From Chitinophagaceae bacterium UBA4407 (GTDB taxonomy: Bacteria; Bacteroidota; Bacteroidia; Chitinophagales; Chitinophagaceae), in contig DGQT01000050.1 in NCBI GenBank assembly GCA_002390845.1, positions 48,781 to 112,780 on the forward strand: DNA of 64,000 nt, written 5' to 3'. The notes under the pieces were generated by a model. That model saw only the letters and a program-made list of their open reading frames with translations, made no database searches and was not told the DNA's origin. Made by a program: the position numbers and the translations under genes. Each line of letters begins with the position of its first letter. Position 1 is the first letter of the stretch. Shown here one piece after another: positions 3,995-56,856 of the stretch.

Positions 3995-4037
3995 TCACTT
4001 TTTTTAATTAGAGCAACATTAGTAAGGGTATTTTTTA

Positions 4038-4135
4038 TGAACCAGACTGCATTGCTACTATAAAACCTTGTTGCGTCGCACTCTTCGGGGCTTTGTTCGC
4101 TCTTCAGCTTAGTGCAGTCAACATTACTAAACAAT
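4038..4135 (-). repeat. CPIR short form, L orientation; right member of the ~95-nt inverted pair
   Basis: Core TTGCGTCGCAC lies at 4071-4081. The outer arm GAACCAGACTGCATTGCTACTATAAAACC mirrors 2870-2903. Confidence 0.8.
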
Positions 4136-4370
4136 GCTCCCTGTTATGTTACTACATGTACCTTGCTGGCAACACCAAAATCAAGCCATTGTAACCTTCA
4201 TTCGCTTAAAACAAAAATAAAGCTGATTTTTAAAACTGCCTTTAAAGTTTAAAGTGAGTGAATTGCAGATTACATGCCATAATGAAATATAGCGGTGAAA
4301 CATAATACCGCTTTACGTTTCAGTAAATTATAAGTTCATGAAGAGGTATTTTTATAGCTCAAAGATTCTT

Positions 4371-4640: not shown

Positions 4641-4683
4641 CTTTTATATTTTAAGAAGGCATTATTTTGCTGAATAATGTAAT

Positions 4684-4841
4684 GCTGTACAAGTGTGCGA
4701 TCCCGAAATAATCCTGAATCAAGTTCAGGACGGGACGGGCTGCCACGCTTCGCTTAAATGTTGCCATGAAAAGGGAACTTAGAACCGAGCGTGGCAAGAA
4801 AAGCTTCATTAATATTCTACAGCCGGGCTCATGATTAAAAA
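4684..4841 (+). repeat. CPIR long form, R orientation
   Basis: GTACAAGTGTGCGA is followed by an insert, then CAAGAAAAGCTTCATT..AGCCGGGCTC. The insert reads TCCCG..TCCTGAA/TTCAGGA..CGGGA, GCCACGCTTCGCTTAAATGTTGCCATGAAA..GAGCGTGG. Confidence 0.85.
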
Positions 4842-8277: not shown

Positions 8278-8284
8278 AGCCATT

Positions 8285-8398
8285 TTTATTAGCCGGGCCA
8301 GAGAATTACTATGAAGCTTCACTTGCCACGCTCGTTTCACAGTTCCTCTTTCATGGCAACATTTAAGCGAAGTGTTGCAACCTGTCTTCACGCACCTT
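8285..8398 (-). repeat. CPIR long form, L orientation, inner end truncated or decayed
   Basis: AGCCGGGCC..ATGAAGCTTCACTTGCCACGCTCGTTTCACAGTTCCTCTTTCATGGCAACATTTAAGCGAAGTGTTGCAA. Degenerate fragments continue to about 8500. Confidence 0.75.
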
Positions 8399-11721: not shown

Positions 11722-11948
11722 CTGTTTTTTTGCTTAGCTGCATTGCTGCTATTTGGCTTCTGTTGTGTCACTCACTTGTGCAATTAGTCCGGAAGTCGGC
11801 AAGACCGATAGTCCGAAAGATGATTATTGTTAACCGATTGTCTTTCTGACTTACCGACTTTCTGACTTTGCTGACTTGTACTCAACTTTACAAGAGTGCG
11901 ACGCAACGGAAGCTTCATAGCATTACAATTGTTTGGTTCAAAAAAAAT
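11722..11948. mobile_element. compact CPIR doublet (L + R, inner arms facing) between susC and susD
   Basis: The L core is the variant TTGTGTCACTCAC at 11763-11775; the R core is GTGCGACGCAA at 11896-11906. The centre holds an internal inverted repeat, AGTCCGGAAGTCGGCAAG / CTTACCGACTTTCTGACT. Confidence 0.8.
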
Positions 11949-18681: not shown

Positions 18682-18777
18682 ATAGCAGGGAAGACTTTTT
18701 GCAATACTTAATAACAAAATACAAGTACAACAAATGTGTTCGCTGTATTTCGCTTTGCTCAATATAGCTCCGGCAGT

Positions 18778-18912
18778 TGAAGGGTGCGATCCCGAAATGA
18801 ATTTGGGACAGGCTGTCACGCTACGCTTAAATGTCGCCATGAAAGGGGAACTGTGAAACGAGCGTGGCAACGGAACTTTAATGTATGTTCAAATGCCTGG
18901 TTCATAAAAAAT
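18778..18912 (+). repeat. CPIR long form, R orientation
   Basis: GGGTGCGATCCCGAAATGAATTTGGGACAGGCTGTCACGCTACGCTTAAATGTCGCCATGAAAGGGGAACTGTGAAACGAGCGTGGCAAC..GCCTGGTTCATAAAAAA. Confidence 0.85.
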
Positions 18913-27795: not shown

Positions 27796-27864
27796 AACAA
27801 TGATTTTATATGCCGGGCACTTTCATAAAAATGCCCGGCTGTTGAAAGCTTAGTAAAGTTAATA

Positions 27865-28012
27865 CTGTACAAGTGTGCGATCCCGAAATAAATTCGGTCC
27901 CGAAATACTTCGGGATGCCACGCTTCGCTTAAATGTCGCCATGAAAGAGGAACCGTGAAACGAGCGTGGCAAGGAACGCTTAATTGAAATTATTAAGCCC
28001 GGCTCAAAAAAA
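27865..28012 (+). repeat. CPIR long form, R orientation
   Basis: Full-length copy. Hairpins CCGAA/TTCGG and CCCGAA/TTCGGG are followed by GCCACGCTTCGCTTAAATGTCGCCATGAAA..GAGCGTGGCAAG, and AAGCCCGGCTCAAAAAAA ends at the permease stop. Confidence 0.88.
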
Positions 28013-29449
28013 TTACACCTTCCTGTTTGCCACTGCAATATAATACAACGGAATGCCAGCAAGTGTTATAAGCAAACCTGGCCATGTATAACCGCTTTTA
28101 AAAAATATAAGCAACACGCAAAATGATACGCCCATTAAAATATAAATGGCGGGCAGCACGGGATACCCGAATGCTTTATATGGCCTTTCGGCATCGGGCA
28201 TTTTTTTGCGCAGAATAAAAATACCCGCAATGGTGAGTACATAAAAAATTACAACGACAAAGGAAACCATATCGAGCAGATCGCCATACTTGCCGCTTAA
28301 GCATAAAATGGAAGCTACCAGGCATTGCGCCCATAAAGACCATGCAGGCACTGCATTTTTATTTAATGTTCCGGCATTTTTAAAGAACACGCCATCTTTT
28401 GCCATGGTATAATAAACCCTTGCCCCGGCGATGATCAACCCGTTGTTGCAGCCAAATGTAGAGACCATGATGAGTACCGCAATTACGTAAGTGCCCACGC
28501 TGCCGAAAATATTATTGGCGGCGGCAACTGCTACCCGGTTTTGCGGCGCATAAGCTATTTCGCTTACAGGCAGCACAGACAAATACATGAGGTTGCAGCT
28601 AATATAAATTACAGTAACAATCAACGTTCCGAGGAAAAGGCTTAAGCCGATATTTTTCTTGGGGTTTTTTATTTCGCCTGCAATAAAAGTTACATTGTTC
28701 CATGCATCGCTGCTGAAGATGGAGCCTACCATTGCACTGGCCATTGCACCCAGCATGGCAACACCCATTACAGGTTGCCAGGAAATAATATCTGTACCAT
28801 TGGGTGTGGTTTGTTTGGTGGCTTTCATCATGCTCCATGCATCGCTCCAGTTAAGGCTCCATATTTCTGATTTGGCAGCAAAAAAACCGAAAATAATCAA
28901 GCCGAATAATGCCAGTAGTTTGGTAGAAGTAAAAATATTCTGTATCCATTTACCACCTTTTAATCCTTTGGTATTGGTATAGGTTAGAAACACAAGAAGT
29001 AAAATGGAAACCAACTGTGCGGGGTAAACTTTGAATGAGCCCAGCGCAAAAATGATATTCTCATCTTTTAGCTCAAGAACCGGGAAAAAATATCCGGCAA
29101 ACTTGCTGAAAGCCACCCCCACAGCAGCCATGGTACCGGTTTGAATAACGGCGAAAAAACTCCAGCCATATAAAAAAGCAATCAGTGGATTGTATGCTTC
29201 TTTAAGATAAACATATTGTCCGCCAGCTTTAGGAAACATGGCGCTGAGTTCACCATAACTTAATGCAGCGGTTAAGGTCATAAAACCTGTGAGGCCCCAT
29301 GCAAGTATCAGCCAGCCTGCAGAGCCGAGGTCTTTAAGCATATCGGCGCTTACAATAAAAATACCCGAGCCGATCATGCTGCCGGCAACAATCATGGTTG
29401 CATCTAAAAGTCCGAGCGATGGTTTAAATGACGATGAGGTTTCTTGCAT
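28013..29449 (-). CDS. APC-superfamily amino-acid permease
   Basis: 478 aa with about 12 TM segments and an N-terminal GSGIF motif. Confidence 0.88.
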   Translation of the reverse strand: MQETSSSFKPSLGLLDATMIVAGSMIGSGIFIVSADMLKDLGSAGWLILAWGLTGFMTLTAALSYGELSAMFPKAGGQYVYLKEAYNPLIAFLYGWSFFAVIQTGTMAAVGVAFSKFAGYFFPVLELKDENIIFALGSFKVYPAQLVSILLLVFLTYTNTKGLKGGKWIQNIFTSTKLLALFGLIIFGFFAAKSEIWSLNWSDAWSMMKATKQTTPNGTDIISWQPVMGVAMLGAMASAMVGSIFSSDAWNNVTFIAGEIKNPKKNIGLSLFLGTLIVTVIYISCNLMYLSVLPVSEIAYAPQNRVAVAAANNIFGSVGTYVIAVLIMVSTFGCNNGLIIAGARVYYTMAKDGVFFKNAGTLNKNAVPAWSLWAQCLVASILCLSGKYGDLLDMVSFVVVIFYVLTIAGIFILRKKMPDAERPYKAFGYPVLPAIYILMGVSFCVLLIFFKSGYTWPGLLITLAGIPLYYIAVANRKV

Positions 29450-30157: not shown

Positions 30158-30250
30158 CAGGTTTTAAGGCGGTGAAGGTAAATTTATGGTTAAATAAAAT
30201 TTGTTAAAAGAATTGTAAGAGGGGAATATTTAGCGAATTTAAAAATACAT

Positions 30251-30392
30251 TTTTTAACCCAGGTTTTGAATAAGAATGAGGCTTTTCTTGCCACGCTCGG
30301 TTCACAGTTCCTCTTTCATAGCAGCAAAAGCTCAGTAGCTTTTATGAGCGTATTTCGGCTTTGCTTAATATTCAAAGGATCGCATACTTGTG
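30251..30392 (-). repeat. CPIR long form, L orientation, diverged insert
   Basis: AATGAGGCTTTTCTTGCCACGCTCGGTTCACAGTTCCTCTTTCAT is followed by the replaced segment AAAAGCTCAGTAGCTTTT, then ..ATTTCGG..GGATCGCATACTTGTG. Confidence 0.7.
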
Positions 30393-30467
30393 TTATAAAA
30401 TAAATTCAGGCTTTCAACAGCCGGTACACCCGTGTGTAAAAGCCTGTATAAAAGTGCGGTTTTTTCA

Positions 30468-31713: not shown

Positions 31714-33684
31714 TTAAGCAACAACCTGCTTTTCAAGGTTCATGATCTGCTCAAATAATTTCTCGTATTGCTCTTCTGCAACAGCAATTTTTTGCTGAAT
31801 ATTTTTATGGTCTGTTTCTATTTGCCTGAATTTATTTTGATCTGCATAGTTTGCCGGCTTAGAAAGTTCCAGTTCAATTTCGGCCTTATTTTTATTCAAC
31901 TGGTTTATTTGTTCTTCCAGTTTATTAAACTGTTTTTGTAATTTTTCAAGTTCTTTTTTCTGTTCTTTGTTTTGCTGTGTAACGATTGCCAGCTGTGGCT
32001 TTGCAACAACAATCGGTTTTTCCTTTTCCTCTTTCACTTGTTGCTGGGCTGCGGCTTTTTCTGATTTTTCTTTACGCTCTTTCCAGTCAACCCATTCTTC
32101 ATACCCGCCTTTAAAAACTTTTATTTCGCGGTCAACAATCTCCCAAATAGTGTTTGCTGTTTTTGAAATAAAATAGCGGTCGTGACTTACCAAAATTGAA
32201 GTGCCTTCATATTTATTCAATGCTTCGGCAAGCAGTTCCACACTGTGCATGTCGAGGTGGTTGGTAGGTTCATCCAACATCAAAAAATTGCCTTTACCCG
32301 TAATAACTTTTGCAAGTGCCACCCTTGCTTTTTCACCACCACTCAGTATCTTGATTTTTTTATCCGTATCATCGCCACTAAACAAGAAACAACCCATTAA
32401 AGAACGCAGCTCCAATTCGTTTTTACCACTGCCACATTCTTTCATTTCATCAAGAATGGTGTTGTTAATATTCAAAGCTTCCAACTGGTGCTGGGCGTAA
32501 AAACTTTCATCAACATTATGGCCCCAAACCCTTTCACCTTCGAATGGTTCAGTGCCTGCGATCATGCGCAGCAGCGTAGATTTTCCTTTACCGTTAGCAC
32601 CGATCAATGCAATTTTATCGCCGCGGTTTATTTCTGCTTCGGCGTTTTCTACAATTGTGTTTGCTCCGAATTTCTTTGTTGCATTTTTAAGCGTTGCAAT
32701 TATTTTTCCCGGTTGTTTATCTACTTTAAAACTGATGCGCAGGTTGGGGCGTTCTATTTCTACCTGTTCAACTCTTTCCAGTTTATCAAGCTTCTTCATT
32801 ATGCTCTGTGCCATTGCTGCTTTGCTTGCTTTAGCCCTAAAACGTTCTACCAGGCGTTCATTTTGTCTTATATAATCCTGTTGATTCTCATAAGCCCGCT
32901 GCTGCATTTCTATACGCAGTTCTTTTTCAGTGGCGTAATAATCATAGTTACCGTTGTAAATATGCAGCTCCTGCTGGTAAACTTCCACGATCTTATTTAC
33001 CATGCGGTTCAGAAAATATTTATCGTGGCTTACAATCACAACGCTGCCTTTATAGTGCAGCAGGTATTTCTCCAGCCATTCAATCGAGGGAAGGTCAAGG
33101 TGGTTGGTAGGTTCATCCAGTAAGAGCACATCCGGTTGCTGCAGAATCATTTTAGCCAGCAACACACGCATGCGCCAGCCTCCGCTGAATTCTTTGTACG
33201 GCCTTTGCAAATCTGCATTTGGAAAGCCAAGCCCCTGCAATACCTCTTCAGTTTTATGATGAATATTATACCCGCCTAAAATTTCCAGTTCGTGCAGTTT
33301 ATCTGAGTATTCGTGCAGCAACGCTTCTTCATCGCCTTCGCCTGTAAAAGAAGGATGTTCCATTTTTTTGCCCAGCGCTTCAATTTCTTTCTCCAGTTGC
33401 TTTACCTGCTCAAATGCACCCATTGCCACTTCAAGAATGGAATCGTTGGTATCGAAACTCAGCAGGTCCTGGTGCAGGTAACCAATGGTGGTATCGCGGC
33501 TTTTTTCAACCGATCCCGATGAGGGCTGGTATTCGCCTACCAGTAATTTAAGAAGGGTTGATTTGCCGGTTCCGTTGTAGCCGATAAGGCCCACGCGGTC
33601 GCCGGGAAGTATATGCCAGGTAGCATCCTGCACAATTACACGGGCACCAAATTCGAACGTAATATTGTTGAGTCCTATTAACAT
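31714..33684 (-). CDS. ABC-F family ATPase (two ABC cassettes, C-terminal coiled coil)
   Basis: Two Walker A motifs (GYNGTGKST, GANGKGKST), two LSGG signatures, no TM domain, 656 aa. Confidence 0.92.
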   Translation of the reverse strand: MLIGLNNITFEFGARVIVQDATWHILPGDRVGLIGYNGTGKSTLLKLLVGEYQPSSGSVEKSRDTTIGYLHQDLLSFDTNDSILEVAMGAFEQVKQLEKEIEALGKKMEHPSFTGEGDEEALLHEYSDKLHELEILGGYNIHHKTEEVLQGLGFPNADLQRPYKEFSGGWRMRVLLAKMILQQPDVLLLDEPTNHLDLPSIEWLEKYLLHYKGSVVIVSHDKYFLNRMVNKIVEVYQQELHIYNGNYDYYATEKELRIEMQQRAYENQQDYIRQNERLVERFRAKASKAAMAQSIMKKLDKLERVEQVEIERPNLRISFKVDKQPGKIIATLKNATKKFGANTIVENAEAEINRGDKIALIGANGKGKSTLLRMIAGTEPFEGERVWGHNVDESFYAQHQLEALNINNTILDEMKECGSGKNELELRSLMGCFLFSGDDTDKKIKILSGGEKARVALAKVITGKGNFLMLDEPTNHLDMHSVELLAEALNKYEGTSILVSHDRYFISKTANTIWEIVDREIKVFKGGYEEWVDWKERKEKSEKAAAQQQVKEEKEKPIVVAKPQLAIVTQQNKEQKKELEKLQKQFNKLEEQINQLNKNKAEIELELSKPANYADQNKFRQIETDHKNIQQKIAVAEEQYEKLFEQIMNLEKQVVA

Positions 33685-33800
33685 GATTTTTAAAAATTCT
33701 GCGCAAAACTAATTGAAACAGGAAAAGTAAACGCATAAGATTTTCAGGCTGCAAAAAAGCTGGCGTAAATGCTTGCTCTGTTAGAAATAAAAGGCAGTTT

Positions 33801-33876
33801 ATGAACCGGGCGTATGGGAATTTCTATGAAGCATTGTTGCGTCGCACACTTGTACGGTTGGATTATATATTGAGCA
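33801..33876 (-). repeat. CPIR short form, L orientation; left border of the AT-rich island
   Basis: ATGAACCGGGC..CTATGAAGCATTG; core lies at 33837-33847; inner arm CTTGTACGGTTGGATTATATATTGAGCA. Confidence 0.85.
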
Positions 33877-33945
33877 TTAACAGCCCTGCAAAATATATTG
33901 GTGTATTAATTATGCAACACAACCATTTTTTGCAAGGCGGTTTAG
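33877..33945 (+). other. imperfect palindrome, attC-like (TTAAC...GTTTAG)
   Basis: Arms 33877-33893 (TTAACAGCCCTGCAAAA) and 33928-33944 (TTTTGCAAGGCGGTTTA) pair at 14 of 17 positions, with a 34-nt loop. Confidence 0.4.
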
Positions 33946-33976
33946 TTCGTTTATTTTTGAGAGTACGGCAATTATT

Positions 33977-34855
33977 ATGAATGTTAGAAAACCACTATAT
34001 AGAATTTGTGAATACTGTAAGTGTATGCTTAGGGTTGAAAATTATAGCCAACACTTGGATAGAGTTCACAAAACGCAAATCGAGGCGCGACATAGAAGTA
34101 ACAATAATAAATCCGAGGAAGTCGAAATTCTTGAACTCATTTGGGATGACATCGATTTTGGAAAGGATTGCCTTAAGTTTAAATCATCCAGATTAAATAA
34201 AATTATACAACCTTTTCCTCACGAAGGATTAATCGAAGGCCTTAATTTAATAAAGCAAGAATATTTTCAAAAATTGGTGTTCAAAATAGCAGTATCAAAT
34301 GGGAAAATTATTCCCGAAAACTCAAAAGGATTAAATAACCTGTTTGACAAGATTGAGGTAGCAAAAGCATACTATTCTTTTAAACGACCTAGTCAAAAAA
34401 ACAAATTTTTTACGACAGAAAAGCTATCCAATAATGATATACTAGATTTATTTAAAGAGGCTTTTGACAAATCTGAATACATAAAATATTTGGCAAAAAA
34501 ACAGCGGAAAAATTCCCTTAAACTTATTCCGATAATTGAATACATTAATAACAAGTATGAAGAAGCTTTTCTTTTTAGGTATAAAGTAAGACAAAATTCT
34601 ATTTTGTTGGTTTGGGAAAACGTAAACGATGGACGGGCATCACATCTGTTTGAATACTGTATTTCTGAGGAAGGCAAGGTATTAAGAGAAATAAAGTATT
34701 TTGTTAACAGGGATGATTTAATTAACAAGCGAAGCGGTTTACATTCACAAACTGCAGAAGTATCACAAACTAAATACGCCCTAAAATATAAAGGCCATAT
34801 TAAGCATAATAGCCTCAAAGAGTACATAACAAAATTAGATAAGATCATTTGTTAA
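33977..34855 (+). CDS. hypothetical protein (AT-rich island gene 1)
   Basis: 292-aa ORF, visibly AT-richer than its surroundings, with an N-terminal CEYC..(13)..HLDRVH zinc-finger-like spacing. I recognise no family. Confidence 0.5.
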   Translation: MNVRKPLYRICEYCKCMLRVENYSQHLDRVHKTQIEARHRSNNNKSEEVEILELIWDDIDFGKDCLKFKSSRLNKIIQPFPHEGLIEGLNLIKQEYFQKLVFKIAVSNGKIIPENSKGLNNLFDKIEVAKAYYSFKRPSQKNKFFTTEKLSNNDILDLFKEAFDKSEYIKYLAKKQRKNSLKLIPIIEYINNKYEEAFLFRYKVRQNSILLVWENVNDGRASHLFEYCISEEGKVLREIKYFVNRDDLINKRSGLHSQTAEVSQTKYALKYKGHIKHNSLKEYITKLDKIIC

Positions 34856-34858
34856 AGC

Positions 34859-34950
34859 AGCTAACATTGGCTTCAAGCACTTGTGCAGCACTAAGTCACC
34901 GCTGTTTATTTTCACCGTAATCCTTCGCTTAAATCTTTTTGTGTTAACGG
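34859..34950 (+). other. weak attC-like site (AGCTAAC ... GTTAACG) containing a CCTTCGCTTAAATCT box
   Basis: The terminal TAACA / TGTTA pairing is only 5 bp. The box at 34922-34936 is shared with CPIR inner arms. Confidence 0.25.
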
Positions 34951-35027
34951 TCATTTTTTCTTTCAATTTTAATAAGCTGTTTTTCAAATTACCAATTTTT
35001 GGTAACTTTATTTAAAATTTAAAAAAT

Positions 35028-35279
35028 ATGGGGCGAAACACATCTATATCGCTTGGGAACCATTTTGAAGATTTTGTTGACGATAAAGTTTCTAGCGGAC
35101 GATTTAAGAATGCAAGTGAGGTGATACGTGCCGGGCTTCGTTTACTGGAAGAGGAAGAAAGCAAAATTGTAGCATTAAAAAAAGCCATTGACGAAGGCTT
35201 TGAAAGTGGATTGGCTAAAAACTTTAATGCAAAAAAGCACCTCGAAAAACTAAAAGCCGCCAAACGAAAAAATGGCTAA
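35028..35279 (+). CDS. parD: type II antitoxin ParD (ribbon-helix-helix, COG3609-like)
   Basis: MGRNTSISLGNHFEDFV..GRFKNASEVIRAGLRLLEE. Overlaps parE by 8 nt. Confidence 0.85.
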   Translation: MGRNTSISLGNHFEDFVDDKVSSGRFKNASEVIRAGLRLLEEEESKIVALKKAIDEGFESGLAKNFNAKKHLEKLKAAKRKNG

Positions 35280-35571
35280 TTATATTCTTACCAATAAAGC
35301 GGTTGAAGATTTATCGGAAATCTGGGATTATACATTTGAAGCCTGGTCAGAAACACAGGCTGACAGATATTATTATATGCTTCTTGACTCTTGCCAGGAA
35401 CTGGCTGATGAAAAAGTGCACGGCAAAAATTATCCTGAAGTGAGAGAAGATATTTCAGGTTTTAGAGTGGGTTTGCATATCATCTTTTACAGAAAATTAA
35501 AAGGCAATAAAATTGAAATTGCCAGGATTCTTCACAGCAGAATGGATTTAAAAAGCAGAATGCAAGAATAA
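35272..35571 (+). CDS. parE: type II toxin ParE (RelE/ParE superfamily)
   Basis: 99 aa. A..DLSEIWDYT..RYYYMLLDSCQ..GFRVGLHIIFYR..IEIARILHSRMD is a typical ParE pattern. Confidence 0.88.
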   Translation: MANYILTNKAVEDLSEIWDYTFEAWSETQADRYYYMLLDSCQELADEKVHGKNYPEVREDISGFRVGLHIIFYRKLKGNKIEIARILHSRMDLKSRMQE

Positions 35572-35578
35572 AAACCAC

Positions 35579-35655
35579 CACTAACAGTGGGCCAGGCAAT
35601 ATGGTGTCTTGAAGGAAGTTCAATCGACTATTGTATAAAGCCTTTACTGTTAGCT
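35579..35655 (+). other. imperfect palindrome, attC-like (CACTAAC ... GTTAGCT)
   Basis: CTAACAGT (35581-35588) pairs perfectly with ACTGTTAG (35646-35653). A further GGC/GCC pairing has bulges. The site starts 8 nt after the parE stop. Confidence 0.4.
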
Positions 35656-35698
35656 GCCATTACATACAACTTTGACGAATTAATCAACTTAGATACAA

Positions 35699-36235
35699 GT
35701 GACATTTCAAATAGAACAAATACTTTTAATAAAGAACAAAGCTTATTTGCTAACAAGAAGTTTGAACGACAATATCAGATTTAAACTTTCTGACAATTCT
35801 TTATTAGGCGATTTTGAAATAGAAAATTGGTTTGACATACCAAAGGCTAAAGACGAAAATGGTAATTATAGAAAAGACAATTTCGCATTCGTACTCAAGA
35901 ATGAACGTGATACAGAAAGAATAAAAGAAGGTGACATCTTAAAGCTTTCAGACGTTTATGTTGGAATAGTTGAATCATTTTATACTGTGTCGGGAGTAAT
36001 AGGTTCAGTGTTAGAATGTGGGACGGGCATGCTTGACATCAACACAGTTTTAACCTACAATGAAAAGAAATGGAAAATCACTAAAAACAATCTGCTTATT
36101 GGCAGACAGAAAGACACTGAACTTCAGAAAAGTGTAACTGAAAACTTTTGGTTTCTATATAATCTGGAACCGATTGGCCATACGACAAAACCAGAGGTTG
36201 GCAAAAAGTTACGAGTGATACAAAACGGCTGCTAA
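35699..36235 (+). CDS. hypothetical protein (AT-rich island gene 4)
   Basis: 178-aa ORF with a GTG start. I recognise no domain. Confidence 0.4.
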   Translation: MTFQIEQILLIKNKAYLLTRSLNDNIRFKLSDNSLLGDFEIENWFDIPKAKDENGNYRKDNFAFVLKNERDTERIKEGDILKLSDVYVGIVESFYTVSGVIGSVLECGTGMLDINTVLTYNEKKWKITKNNLLIGRQKDTELQKSVTENFWFLYNLEPIGHTTKPEVGKKLRVIQNGC

Positions 36236-36345
36236 TAAAGCATTGTGCAATTGGAACTTATGAATAGGGTCTTTCATCTCTCCGTTGCAAGCGTTGTAAA
36301 CAGCACCTTCGCTTAAATCTACTACATAATAAAAGTTCAATAGAA

Positions 36346-36413
36346 TATCCGAAAGTACAAGAGTGCGACGCAAGAAAAGCCTCATAGAAAATCTAAAGCC
36401 GGGAACATAAAAA
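36346..36413 (+). repeat. CPIR short form, R orientation; right border of the AT-rich island
   Basis: TATCCGAAAGTACAAGA; core lies at 36363-36373; outer arm GAAAAGCCTCATAG..AAGCCGGGAAC. An inner-arm box CCTTCGCTTAAATCT lies at 36306-36320. Confidence 0.85.
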
Positions 36414-36496
36414 TGTATTTATAAATTATTGCAGTAAAAAATAGTTGGCAATTTTAAAATGATTTGTAAATTGAAGAAAATTAAAACGATTGCACT

Positions 36497-36904
36497 ATGA
36501 TAAAATTCAGCGAAATTAAAATGGGCGATTATGTAATGGCCGAATATGAAGGCCAGTTGCGCCGCGGCGAAGTAACACGCCTTAACGGTGATGAAAAGCA
36601 GGTTTGTGTAGAAACCGATGTACAGGAATTCTGGTACGAAACAGAACACCTTTTACCCATTGCTATTAACGACGAAGAGTTATTAAAACTTAATTTTTCG
36701 AAAGAAGCATTACCGGATGGAACCGTGAAGTATAAAAAAGGATCTTTCAGGCTGGTAATACCCGGCAAGGATAATTTTTCAACAGTTGATATGTGGTACA
36801 GAGAAGACAGGCGGCAACACCCCAATGTTCATTATATTCATCAGTTACAGAACCATTATTATCAAATGACCAAGGTTCATTTAACCAATGAAGTAATGGC
36901 TTAA
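36497..36904 (+). CDS. conserved hypothetical protein
   Basis: 135-aa ORF with normal composition. I recognise no domain. Confidence 0.5.
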   Translation: MIKFSEIKMGDYVMAEYEGQLRRGEVTRLNGDEKQVCVETDVQEFWYETEHLLPIAINDEELLKLNFSKEALPDGTVKYKKGSFRLVIPGKDNFSTVDMWYREDRRQHPNVHYIHQLQNHYYQMTKVHLTNEVMA

Positions 36905-42313: not shown

Positions 42314-42371
42314 TGAGCCTGACCCCGGAAGGGAGTTGCGGAATTGCAGTAGCTGATTAATGAACTCAATG

Positions 42372-42433
42372 ATGAAAGGATTGCAACGCAACAGGCGATG
42401 CTACAAAGTACAAAAGCTGGTATCTCAATAAAT
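42372..42433 (+). repeat. degenerate CPIR copy (R orientation) between rpsD and rpoA
   Basis: ATTGCAACGCAACAGGCGATGCTACAAAG..GCTGG..CAATAAAT aligns with the copy at 31650-31704. Confidence 0.5.
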
Positions 42434-51797: not shown

Positions 51798-51893
51798 ATT
51801 ACACGTTTATTTGAAGCCGCAATTAAATAAATTCATTATTCACAAAAGCATATTTTTGGATGAGTAACACACAGCAAATGATTAAAGGCAATT

Positions 51894-52152
51894 ATGAACC
51901 AGGCTTTTAATTTATAATGAGGCTTTACTTGCCACGCCCGGTTCAGGGTTCTGTTTTCATGGCGACATTTAAGCGAAGTGTAGCAGCTAAATAAGCACCT
52001 ATTACTAATAGGGCCTTTCTATAATACCACTTAAACATTTAATGCATTCGATTTAATAATGCGGCTGCACAGTGCTGCATAGCATTACAACAGTACAAGT
52101 GAGTGACACAACCAAAGCTTAATAGTAGCAGCATAGTTTAGTACAAAAAAGT
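51894..52152. mobile_element. CPIR doublet: long-form L half plus variant-core R half
   Basis: The L half is ..AATGAGGCTTTACTTGCCACGCCCGGTTCAGGGTTCTGTTTTCATGGCGACATTTAAGCGAAGTGTAGCAGC. The R variant core lies at 52099-52112. Confidence 0.75.
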
Positions 52153-56529: not shown

Positions 56530-56587
56530 TTGTAAATTATTTCATACAAACTTAACAATAAGATAATATTGTCAATGTTAAGTTTTG

Positions 56588-56716
56588 TTTTTTTGAGCCA
56601 GGCATATGAACATATATGAAGCATTGTTGCCACGCTCGTTTCGAGGTTCTGTTTTCATGGCAACATTTAAGCGAAGCGTGGCAGCCCGTCCCGAATTCAT
56701 TTCGGGATTGCACGCT
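56588..56716 (-). repeat. CPIR long form, L orientation
   Basis: TTTTTTTGAGCCAGGC..ATGAAGCATTGTTGCCACGCTCG..CATGGCAACATTTAAGCGAAGCGTGGCAGCCCGTCCCGAATTCATTTCGGGATTGCAC. Confidence 0.88.
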
Positions 56717-56856
56717 TCAGGGGTTTGTTCGCTTATCGGCAAAAAGTGCAGCAGGCTAATTAAATTTAACCGGTTATTTCATCTAATTGGTTTGGGCAAA
56801 TGTGTACATCAATGCCGGGTAAAAACCAGGCAAAAAATGTAAGAAAAAGCTGTATA

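Follow-up and report, generated by a model that had tools for sequence, protein, structure and literature searches.

We analysed a 64,000-nt stretch of contig DGQT01000050.1 from Chitinophagaceae bacterium UBA4407, referred to here in its entirety as the window, and describe an islet that lies in it between an ABC-F gene and a conserved 135-aa gene, g135. The islet is a 2.5-kb AT-rich patch with three accessory modules, ORF1, the gene pair parDE and ORF4, between two arms of an abundant intergenic repeat. All four open reading frames (ORFs; 33977-34855, 35028-35279, 35272-35571 and 35699-36235) are on the plus strand and co-directional, as described in an earlier note on this DNA (the original prediction), and the ABC-F gene is transcribed divergently from them. 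Synteny breaks at this site, between the ABC-F block and a ribosomal block, g135-g947-infA. By ABC-F identity the closest relatives are a Chitinophagaceae metagenome-assembled genome (MAG; 88%) and Limnovirga soli (87%), all others being at 69-77%, and contigs with the same genes originate from activated-sludge metagenomes. The features of the locus are as follows.

33791-33914, plus strand: L arm of the alternating intergenic repeat family (nhmmer profile, model positions 4-126, E 2.1e-18).
33977-34855, plus strand: ORF1, 292 aa, 30.8% GC, with an N-terminal C2H2-like zinc finger and then a ~240-aa domain of an undescribed family.
34914-34952, plus strand: hairpin after ORF1 (ACCGTAA ... TTAACGGT) followed by a T-run; the stem is present in the minimum free energy fold.
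34989-35005, plus strand: palindrome TTACCA-ATTTT-TGGTAA, 23 nt upstream of parD and kept in foreign parDE modules (in L185 as ATTACCAATTTTTGGTAAC).
35028-35279, plus strand: parD antitoxin, 83 aa (PF03693 5.9e-26; TIGR02606 1.8e-26; PDB 3KXE ParD1 1.2e-20).
35272-35571, plus strand: parE toxin, 99 aa (PF05016 4.6e-17; PDB ParE1 8C24 2.7e-12; 3KXE 7.6e-09).
35581-35653, plus strand: imperfect 73-nt hairpin after parE (CTAACAGTGG ... CTTTACTGTTAG), 88% stem match, -24 kcal/mol, z -0.97, not significant.
35699-36235, plus strand: ORF4, 178 aa, 33.7% GC, two beta-barrel domains (AlphaFold2, pLDDT 88).
36298-36416, minus strand: R arm of the repeat family (nhmmer profile, model positions 6-123, E 1.1e-17).
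31714-33684, minus strand: ABC-F gene, left neighbour of the islet.
36497-36904: g135, right neighbour of the islet.

At 33.4%, the GC content of the islet interior is below that of the window (38.6%). The interior marks the lowest GC of the 64 kb, and all 2469-nt stretches with a GC content of 33.4% or less (0.37% of positions) overlap it. The deficit comes mainly from ORF1 (z -3.1), ORF4 (z -2.0) and the spacers. parD, at 39.3%, is not AT-rich and is average for the window. The earlier claim that the islet is AT-richer than its flanks holds for the interior, ORF1 and ORF4, but not for parD, nor does it extend to codon use. The islet is also the largest filled L-to-R interval of the window, as had been proposed, with 2524 nt from core to core against 1360 nt for the next largest.

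To place these genes among relatives, we considered 80 ABC-F loci and 80 g135 loci, many of which span several kb of the relevant flank. None of the four islet genes is present in any of them (tblastn, E<=1e-5), nor was a conserved four-gene synteny across the family, the opposing scenario of the original prediction, found in these 160 loci. Relatives of ORF1, relatives of ORF4 and parDE each occur elsewhere without the other two, in unrelated neighbourhoods, and these loci have no arms. Identical copies of the islet were recovered only from the same locus in other samples. ParD is a member of a cluster of at least 90% identity (n=142) that includes a Ferruginibacter MAG, whereas ABC-F, a housekeeping gene, reaches only 69-77% outside its two nearest relatives. 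The islet genes are probably acquired cargo, and the absence from relatives, the separate occurrence of the modules and the ParD cluster bear out the earlier proposal of horizontally acquired, addiction-related cargo.

Assignment of parD and parE as a bona fide ParDE type II toxin-antitoxin (TA) pair is secure at the level of profile and structure matches. ParD scores 91 bits against PF03693 (cut-off 21) and 92 bits against TIGR02606 (cut-off 46.2), and ParE 62.8 bits against PF05016 (cut-off 23). Pfam, NCBIfam TIGR02606 and the solved ParD/ParE structures thus agree on the canonical pair recognised in the original prediction. In the PHROGs collection, parD matches an antitoxin (phrog_6494, 2.6e-07) and parE a family of unknown function (phrog_18611, 9.3e-20). 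The parD stop and the parE start overlap by 8 nt with the antitoxin first, a bicistronic arrangement. The palindrome at 34989-35005 is presumed to be the ParD operator/promoter region and the left end of a transferable module. ParDE systems are typically autoregulated through such an operator palindrome, and their toxin, a gyrase poison, is neutralised by the antitoxin. A foreign parDE with the same 83+99-aa layout, found on contigs L185-L189, shares 74% DNA identity with window positions 34987-35586, that is, from the palindrome to 15 nt past the parE stop. Its neighbours differ from contig to contig and are shuffled, and it is flanked by that organism's own composite repeats, which have no arm-profile match. 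Because parDE recurs with its own presumed operator among differing neighbours, it appears to be a self-contained, self-regulated module that moves alone. There is nothing unusual about the pair itself.

On both sides of the foreign parDE lie ~130-nt composite direct repeats made up of several small hairpins (L185:3294-3443 and 4109-4241, also in L186-L189). The small genes near it (DUF4397, a DUF433 pair and esterases) vary in order by contig and resemble a shuffled cassette field. One could picture the islet, too, as an integron-like cassette array in which each module carries its own 3' recombination site, namely the hairpins after ORF1, parE and ORF4, and the recombinase is encoded elsewhere. 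TA cassettes are typical of chromosomal integrons. The islet ORFs are co-directional, the imperfect hairpins have AAC...GTT-like ends (CTAAC...GTTAG after parE, GCTAAC...GTTAAC after ORF1), and the direct repeats and shuffled neighbours in L185-L189 fit the same picture. However, neither an integrase nor an attI-linked IntI was found among the ~40 genes scanned in the window, the three hairpins are not homologous to each other and not more stable than shuffles, and their core sites are a loose fit to RYYYAAC/GTTRRRY. The L185 repeats do not belong to the arm family but to a composite one. In addition, parDE moves together with a conserved palindrome and an AT-rich presumed promoter region upstream, and is therefore not a promoterless cassette. 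We consider an integron-like array very unlikely.

The hairpins did not lend themselves to another role either. A structured RNA or terminator function was rejected because the folding energies of the inter-module hairpins, including the region after ORF1, are not better than those of shuffles and the terminator scan gave no plus-strand terminator in the islet. No Rfam family matched, either at the gathering thresholds or at E<=1, and the window contains no tRNA or tmRNA. The hairpin after parE includes AAGTTCAATCGACTAT, which is similar to the inner R-arm sequence AAGTTCAATAGAATAT.

ORF1 and ORF4 had been described as genes without a recognisable family. They indeed have no Pfam, NCBIfam or PADLOC match, but ORF1 is not an orphan: exhaustive phmmer retrieved 133 remote relatives, the best at 39% identity, where a word-indexed search gave none. 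The relatives are rare, in clusters of 1-2 members that are mostly metagenomic, plus one Bacteroidota MAG. The CxxC...H zinc-finger-like N-terminus pointed out in the original prediction (C12-x2-C15 ... H27-x4-H32) is kept across the family. The public ORF1 call starts at Met17 (276 aa, omitting window 33977-34024) and loses the first CxxC of the finger; the family-wide conservation of this finger shows that the 292-aa start is correct and that the public call is too short. Conserved motifs of the family are IWDDIxF, EESFIFR, WENxNxxRATHxF, KRS and H277, and within the C-terminal domain E188, E195, W213, R220, F225, R252 and H277 are invariant. This domain has no Pfam or PDB sequence match. 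The AlphaFold2 model of ORF1 is confident (pLDDT 92.5) and has no significant Foldseek match in PDB or BFVD.

The same C-terminal domain ends proteins of 660-1108 aa (P0067, P0078, P0117, P0118, P0136 and P0140), where it follows an OB_YrrC fold and BspA-type leucine-rich repeats. Its repeated pairing with nucleic-acid-binding heads suggests, by inference, that the domain may act on or sense nucleic acids. A PD-(D/E)xK-like reading of its beta-sheet with the conserved E188, E195 and E214 is only a guess from the order of secondary structures. Neighbours of ORF1 relatives include a Bro-N protein and a putative AbiC, and never parDE or ORF4. A phage or plasmid origin of ORF1 was rejected: there is no tblastn match in 50,697 phage or 72,556 plasmid records and no relative in IMG/VR. 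ORF1 defines an undescribed family, with a confident fold lacking a PDB or BFVD match and with suggestive fusions to DNA-binding and leucine-rich repeat modules.

ORF4 has no significant structural match in PDB (Foldseek). Seven relatives were found at 49-93% identity, one of them from Parafilimonas sp. Of the five ORF4 contigs examined, four place the gene in unrelated neighbourhoods, and the fifth (L184) is a strain variant of this very locus. That variant, from strain DRR046817, carries the closest relative, P0002 (93%). The public ORF4 call starts at residue 22 (157 aa, omitting window 35699-35761), and the homologues favour the longer form. In one context ORF4 follows FtsK, but an identity as immunity protein or LolA was rejected for want of Pfam support. 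PADLOC gave no match for ORF1, ParE or ORF4 and only a spurious 13.8-bit match for ParD; the suggestion that the islet might be defence-related thus finds no matching defence family. In PHROGs, ORF1 and ORF4 have only weak matches (E 0.009-0.015).

The borders of the islet are genuine members of the repeat family. We built an arm profile from 28 arms and searched the window with nhmmer, which extends both the L copy (33801-33876) and the R copy (36346-36413) of the original prediction and leaves their inner ends toward the genes, as described there. Arms follow a general plan of a T-run, CCNGG, ~13 variable nt, ATGAAGC, the core GTTGCGTCGCACACTTGTAC and an inner tail GGATTAT..TGAGCA..GCGAAG. 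In the L arm the outer part consists of a T-run, CCGGG, the variable 13 nt and ATGAAGC, followed by the core and the inner part GGATTATATATTGAGCA, and it aligns in register with 34 other arms. The core palindrome of the R arm, TGCGACGCA, lies at 36364-36372. The 15-mer CCTTCGCTTAAATCT had been reported twice within the islet, after the first and the fourth gene. It is exact at both positions (34922-34936 and 36306-36320), but the profile places the latter copy at the inner end of the R arm, which leaves the one at 34922 as the only stray fragment. Allowing up to 2 mismatches, the window contains the motif 8 times where 0.12 would be expected, and all 8 copies are oriented like the arm or insert containing them. 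The stray copy sits in the loop of the hairpin 3' of ORF1, 66 nt past the stop, in R-arm orientation. Other arm-like sequence inside the islet, including degenerate arms between the modules, was not detected (nhmmer, E<=10).

The two arms belong to a dense set. There are ~35 arms in 64 kb, or one per 1.8 kb (cores at, for example, 480, 2857, 4071 ... 63205), and their orientation alternates between L and R in 30 of the 34 neighbour pairs (binomial P about 3e-6). The T-rich outer ends abut the genes of R...L intervals regardless of gene strand. Nine other L...R brackets hold ordinary genes, such as acylphosphatase, DUF6958, 3-keto-disaccharide hydrolase, GNAT, PfkB and SH3+BON, and in many genera BON lies downstream of ABC-F as its ancestral neighbour. 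With arms alternating throughout the window and ordinary genes in nine further brackets, the L...R bracket does not mark cargo as had been supposed. The variable segments of the two islet arms are 52% identical, compared with a mean of 50% for random arm pairs, and we discarded the idea that they form a matched pair (0.52 vs 0.50). A literature search for such repeats in Chitinophagaceae returned nothing relevant.

Arms also occur at the orthologous sites of relatives that lack the islet. An orthologous L arm stands upstream of ABC-F in L006, and R arms stand directly upstream of g135 in six species (L104, L105, L108, L122, L136 and L151; g135 64-82% identical), indicating that the arms are older than the islet. 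Beside its L arm, L006 has a lipoprotein gene and a putative type II restriction-modification system. Judged by their translations, the open reading frames there (L006:283-1996) would encode a putative restriction enzyme of 207 aa, a protein of 302 aa resembling DNA methyltransferases and a controller-like protein with a helix-turn-helix. Upstream of g135 in L104/L102, a species whose g135 is 82% identical, the L and R arms enclose an interval of ~490 nt of non-coding sequence, with a sulfatase gene to the left. That interval contains three tandem copies of GTGATAAATCACAT (L104:4660-4735, also in L102) with an operator- or iteron-like look. Adjacency of ABC-F and g135 was found only in this species, by a genome scan with ABC-F and a metagenome scan with g135.

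These data bear on the idea of a non-autonomous transposon, a miniature inverted-repeat transposable element with cargo, whose terminal inverted repeats would be the arms, whose four genes would move as a unit and whose empty derivatives would be the short doublets. The arms are inverted repeats with inner ends toward the genes (45 nt, 78% complementary, plus an 18-nt outer match), and the window has many short L-R doublets of 78-200 nt. However, the arms at ABC-F and g135 exist without the islet, the islet arms are unmatched, and inspection of the sequence just outside them gave no target-site duplication. The four genes are never together elsewhere, no further copies of the unit were found at other loci, and the loci of cargo relatives have no arms. 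Among the ~40 genes of the 64-kb window scanned with Pfam, none encodes a transposase, integrase or recombinase. We regard a transposon of this kind as very improbable. A classical genomic island or prophage remnant was also rejected, given a window with no tRNA, no integrase among the scanned genes and only the weak PHROGs matches of ORF1 and ORF4. In itself, the islet is neither a transposon nor an integron nor a prophage.

Several variants of the arm deserve a separate description. C-type arms (4655-4836, 8282-8386, 18723-18912, 27828-28014, 30242-30438, 51885-51987 and 56587-56783, also L184:670-768) are ordinary arms split at the core palindrome by a 77-93-nt element. This element has two subterminal hairpins, neither terminal inverted repeats nor a target-site duplication, and the look of a palindrome-associated transposable element (PATE) or of an IS200-605-like element. 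An arm with the outer module only (TTGCRACGCAAC + GAAG..GCTAC..), ending at the palindrome, occupies the rpsD-rpoA spacer (42350-42420) and is kept in several species (L088:6077, L102:5677, L159/L162/L163:18868). Its conservation between rpsD and rpoA suggests that the outer module forms a unit by itself and may have a function. The R and L arms round a DUF4421 gene (2809-2905 and 4035-4131) are 93% identical, including the normally variable 13-nt segment, and are arranged as R...gene...L, the opposite of the doublet arrangement in the original prediction. A core variant B (TGTG-T-CAC; for example at 11763, 26664, 45666, 49877, 52099 and 57436) is separated from variant A (TGCG-T-CGCA) by changes that are symmetric and leave the palindrome intact, and L/R neighbours are often heterotypic, pairing A with B or C.

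Strain differences at the right border begin within the R-arm core. From 36366 through the g135 promoter region, the near-identical strain of contig L101 shares 97.7% identity with the window, and its g135 is 96% identical at the protein level. The break is at 36365/36366, inside the palindrome, and the 104 nt left of it match nothing in the window or in any of the loci compared. Strain DRR046817 (L184/L088; ~96-97% nucleotide identity) has ORF4 in place (93% aa), and its R arm has a ~100-nt insertion in the core palindrome (GTGTGA / insert / GCAAG, equivalent to window 36368^36370). Seven arms of the window are split by the C-type insert at profile position 52/54, matching this insertion point. 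The differences in L101 and DRR046817 begin at most 4 nt apart. Overall, the arms have a modular build, and it is in their core palindrome that the sequences of different strains cease to be continuous. With one R arm present in full, with a ~100-nt insertion and truncated at the core, this is a good locus for testing the repeats as recombination or insertion sites.

At the left border, a co-occurring strain (L087:1-170, aligned with window 33761-33930) is 100% identical over the islet and 6.5 kb rightward. Its mismatches are clustered at 33854-33930, in the L arm and ~40 nt inside it, the outer half and core of the arm are nearly identical, and left of the arm it is barely alignable. This pattern points to a recombination mosaic or to fast turnover of the arm. 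Independent assemblies also speak to the idea of an inverton, in which a recombinase would flip the segment between the inverted arms in a phase-variable manner. Inverted repeats do flank the 2.4-kb segment, Bacteroidota are rich in invertons, and inversions would preserve the strict L/R alternation. However, all independent assemblies spanning part of the islet (L001, L002, L003, L087 and L184) show one orientation, no invertase is encoded nearby, and the segment contains a presumed promoter and operator of its own. An inverton is, in our estimate, extremely improbable.

Taken together, we favour with moderate confidence the reading that the islet is a strain- and species-specific accessory patchwork of three independently acquired modules, in an inter-arm spacer that is prone to recombination, and that it is stabilised by the TA pair. 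The modules would have accumulated in the spacer between two neighbouring arms at the synteny breakpoint. From their independent distributions, their differing GC and the single stray arm motif we infer that they arrived in separate steps, in line with the stepwise build-up proposed in the original prediction. DNA may enter or leave the spacer by recombination at or beside the arm core, as the two junction polymorphisms and the modular arm architecture suggest. This could be homologous or gene-conversion exchange, with the conserved arms as portable homology, or else a site-specific activity on the TGCG-W-CGCA palindrome. ParE/ParD could then stabilise the islet, since cells without it would be killed post-segregationally or by addiction. 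Contigs assembled from short reads end at the arms, and relatives do not keep ABC-F and g135 adjacent, so that the order and the mechanism of acquisition are reconstructed indirectly.

Several observations weigh against this patchwork reading. Other L...R brackets hold ancestral genes, and the arms therefore need not be causal. The 15-mer 3' of ORF1 is the sole arm remnant inside the islet. The junction polymorphisms behind the core as crossover point number only two, both at the R arm, and the L arm gave no junction evidence, the divergence of L087 being diffuse over 33786-33930 with no sharp break. Neither exact-protein look-ups of g135 and ABC-F, whose contigs end at arms, nor the genome scan and the metagenome scan recovered an allele that was empty or that had only some of the modules. 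Lastly, synonymous codon use in the four genes is indistinguishable from the window background and so does not mark them as foreign. Such native-like codon usage implies that the donors were probably related Chitinophagaceae, or that the genes have ameliorated.

The main rival to the patchwork is coincidence: ordinary lineage-specific genes in one of many inter-arm segments, with the arms acting as boundary elements of almost all transcription units and having no role in gain or loss. It accounts for arms that flank essentially every gene block, for the ordinary and partly ancestral genes of the other brackets and for the native-like codon use. It does not account for two independent strain differences that begin inside the 9-nt core palindrome of one R arm. 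Nor does it explain why each species examined has different content beside the arms that precede ABC-F and g135, or why the islet is both the sole TA or mobile-type content of the 64 kb and its GC minimum. We therefore consider coincidence unlikely.

A bolder extension is that the TGCG-W-CGCA core of ~2,000 or more arms might provide chromosome-wide landing pads for modules and C-type inserts, in a cassette exchange distinct from integrons, with the islet as the largest loaded site in the window. ORF1 would then be a new conflict-system effector domain, its finger replaced by an OB fold and leucine-rich repeats in the larger relatives. This is a speculation to which we give little credence. 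On the patchwork reading, the islet would be an ordinary TA-stabilised accessory patch with two uncharacterised proteins, and it is the surrounding repeats that are unusual. The main value of the islet is as a test locus for a far stranger repeat family.

Among known systems, the parDE module compares most simply. Like chromosomal ParD/ParE pairs (e.g. Caulobacter ParD1-ParE1, PDB 3KXE), it has a ribbon-helix-helix antitoxin upstream of a RelE/ParE-fold toxin, an 8-nt ORF overlap and a predicted upstream palindromic operator, and it is located in accessory DNA with independent spread between genomes. Neither of its neighbours, ORF1 and ORF4, is a known TA partner, and neither moves with the pair. 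The islet as a whole resembles integron cassettes in its small co-directional modules, one of them a TA pair, each followed by an imperfect palindrome and each with an independent phyletic distribution. It differs from them in that neither an integrase nor an attI was found in the window, parDE brings a presumed promoter of its own and the repeats at the borders are inverted, not direct; the hairpins, moreover, are weak and unlike one another.

The arms call to mind REP/REPIN/BIME sequences and the IS200/IS605-derived PATEs, since they are abundant intergenic inverted pairs that persist at orthologous sites and break assemblies. The ~100-nt C-type insert is PATE-like in its subterminal hairpins, its lack of terminal inverted repeats and target-site duplication, and its fixed insertion point. 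A REP unit is a palindrome of 20-40 nt with a GTAG or CGTC tag, occurring in inverted doublets and mobilised by an associated RAYT gene. The arm core contains CGTC but has no adjacent 8-9-bp hairpin of the kind defined in PMC3733652, and a CGTC-type REP identity is improbable on that ground. The arms are also 3-5x longer than REPs, with conserved blocks, variable spacers and L/R partners that are not sequence-matched, and neither a RAYT nor a Y1 transposase was seen in the window.

The minimal mobile elements of Neisseria, in their dRS3/Correia context, offer a further comparison. Under the strict definition these have the same flanks, whereas the core genes flanking the islet are not conserved as a pair across species, and the islet arms are longer than the Neisseria repeats (about 75-125 nt), modular and strictly alternating. 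In both systems, alternative accessory genes (TA, restriction-modification and unknowns) occupy one site, varying by strain or species, that has no mobility genes and has abundant small repeats at its borders, and exchange is presumed to proceed via recombination in the flanks.

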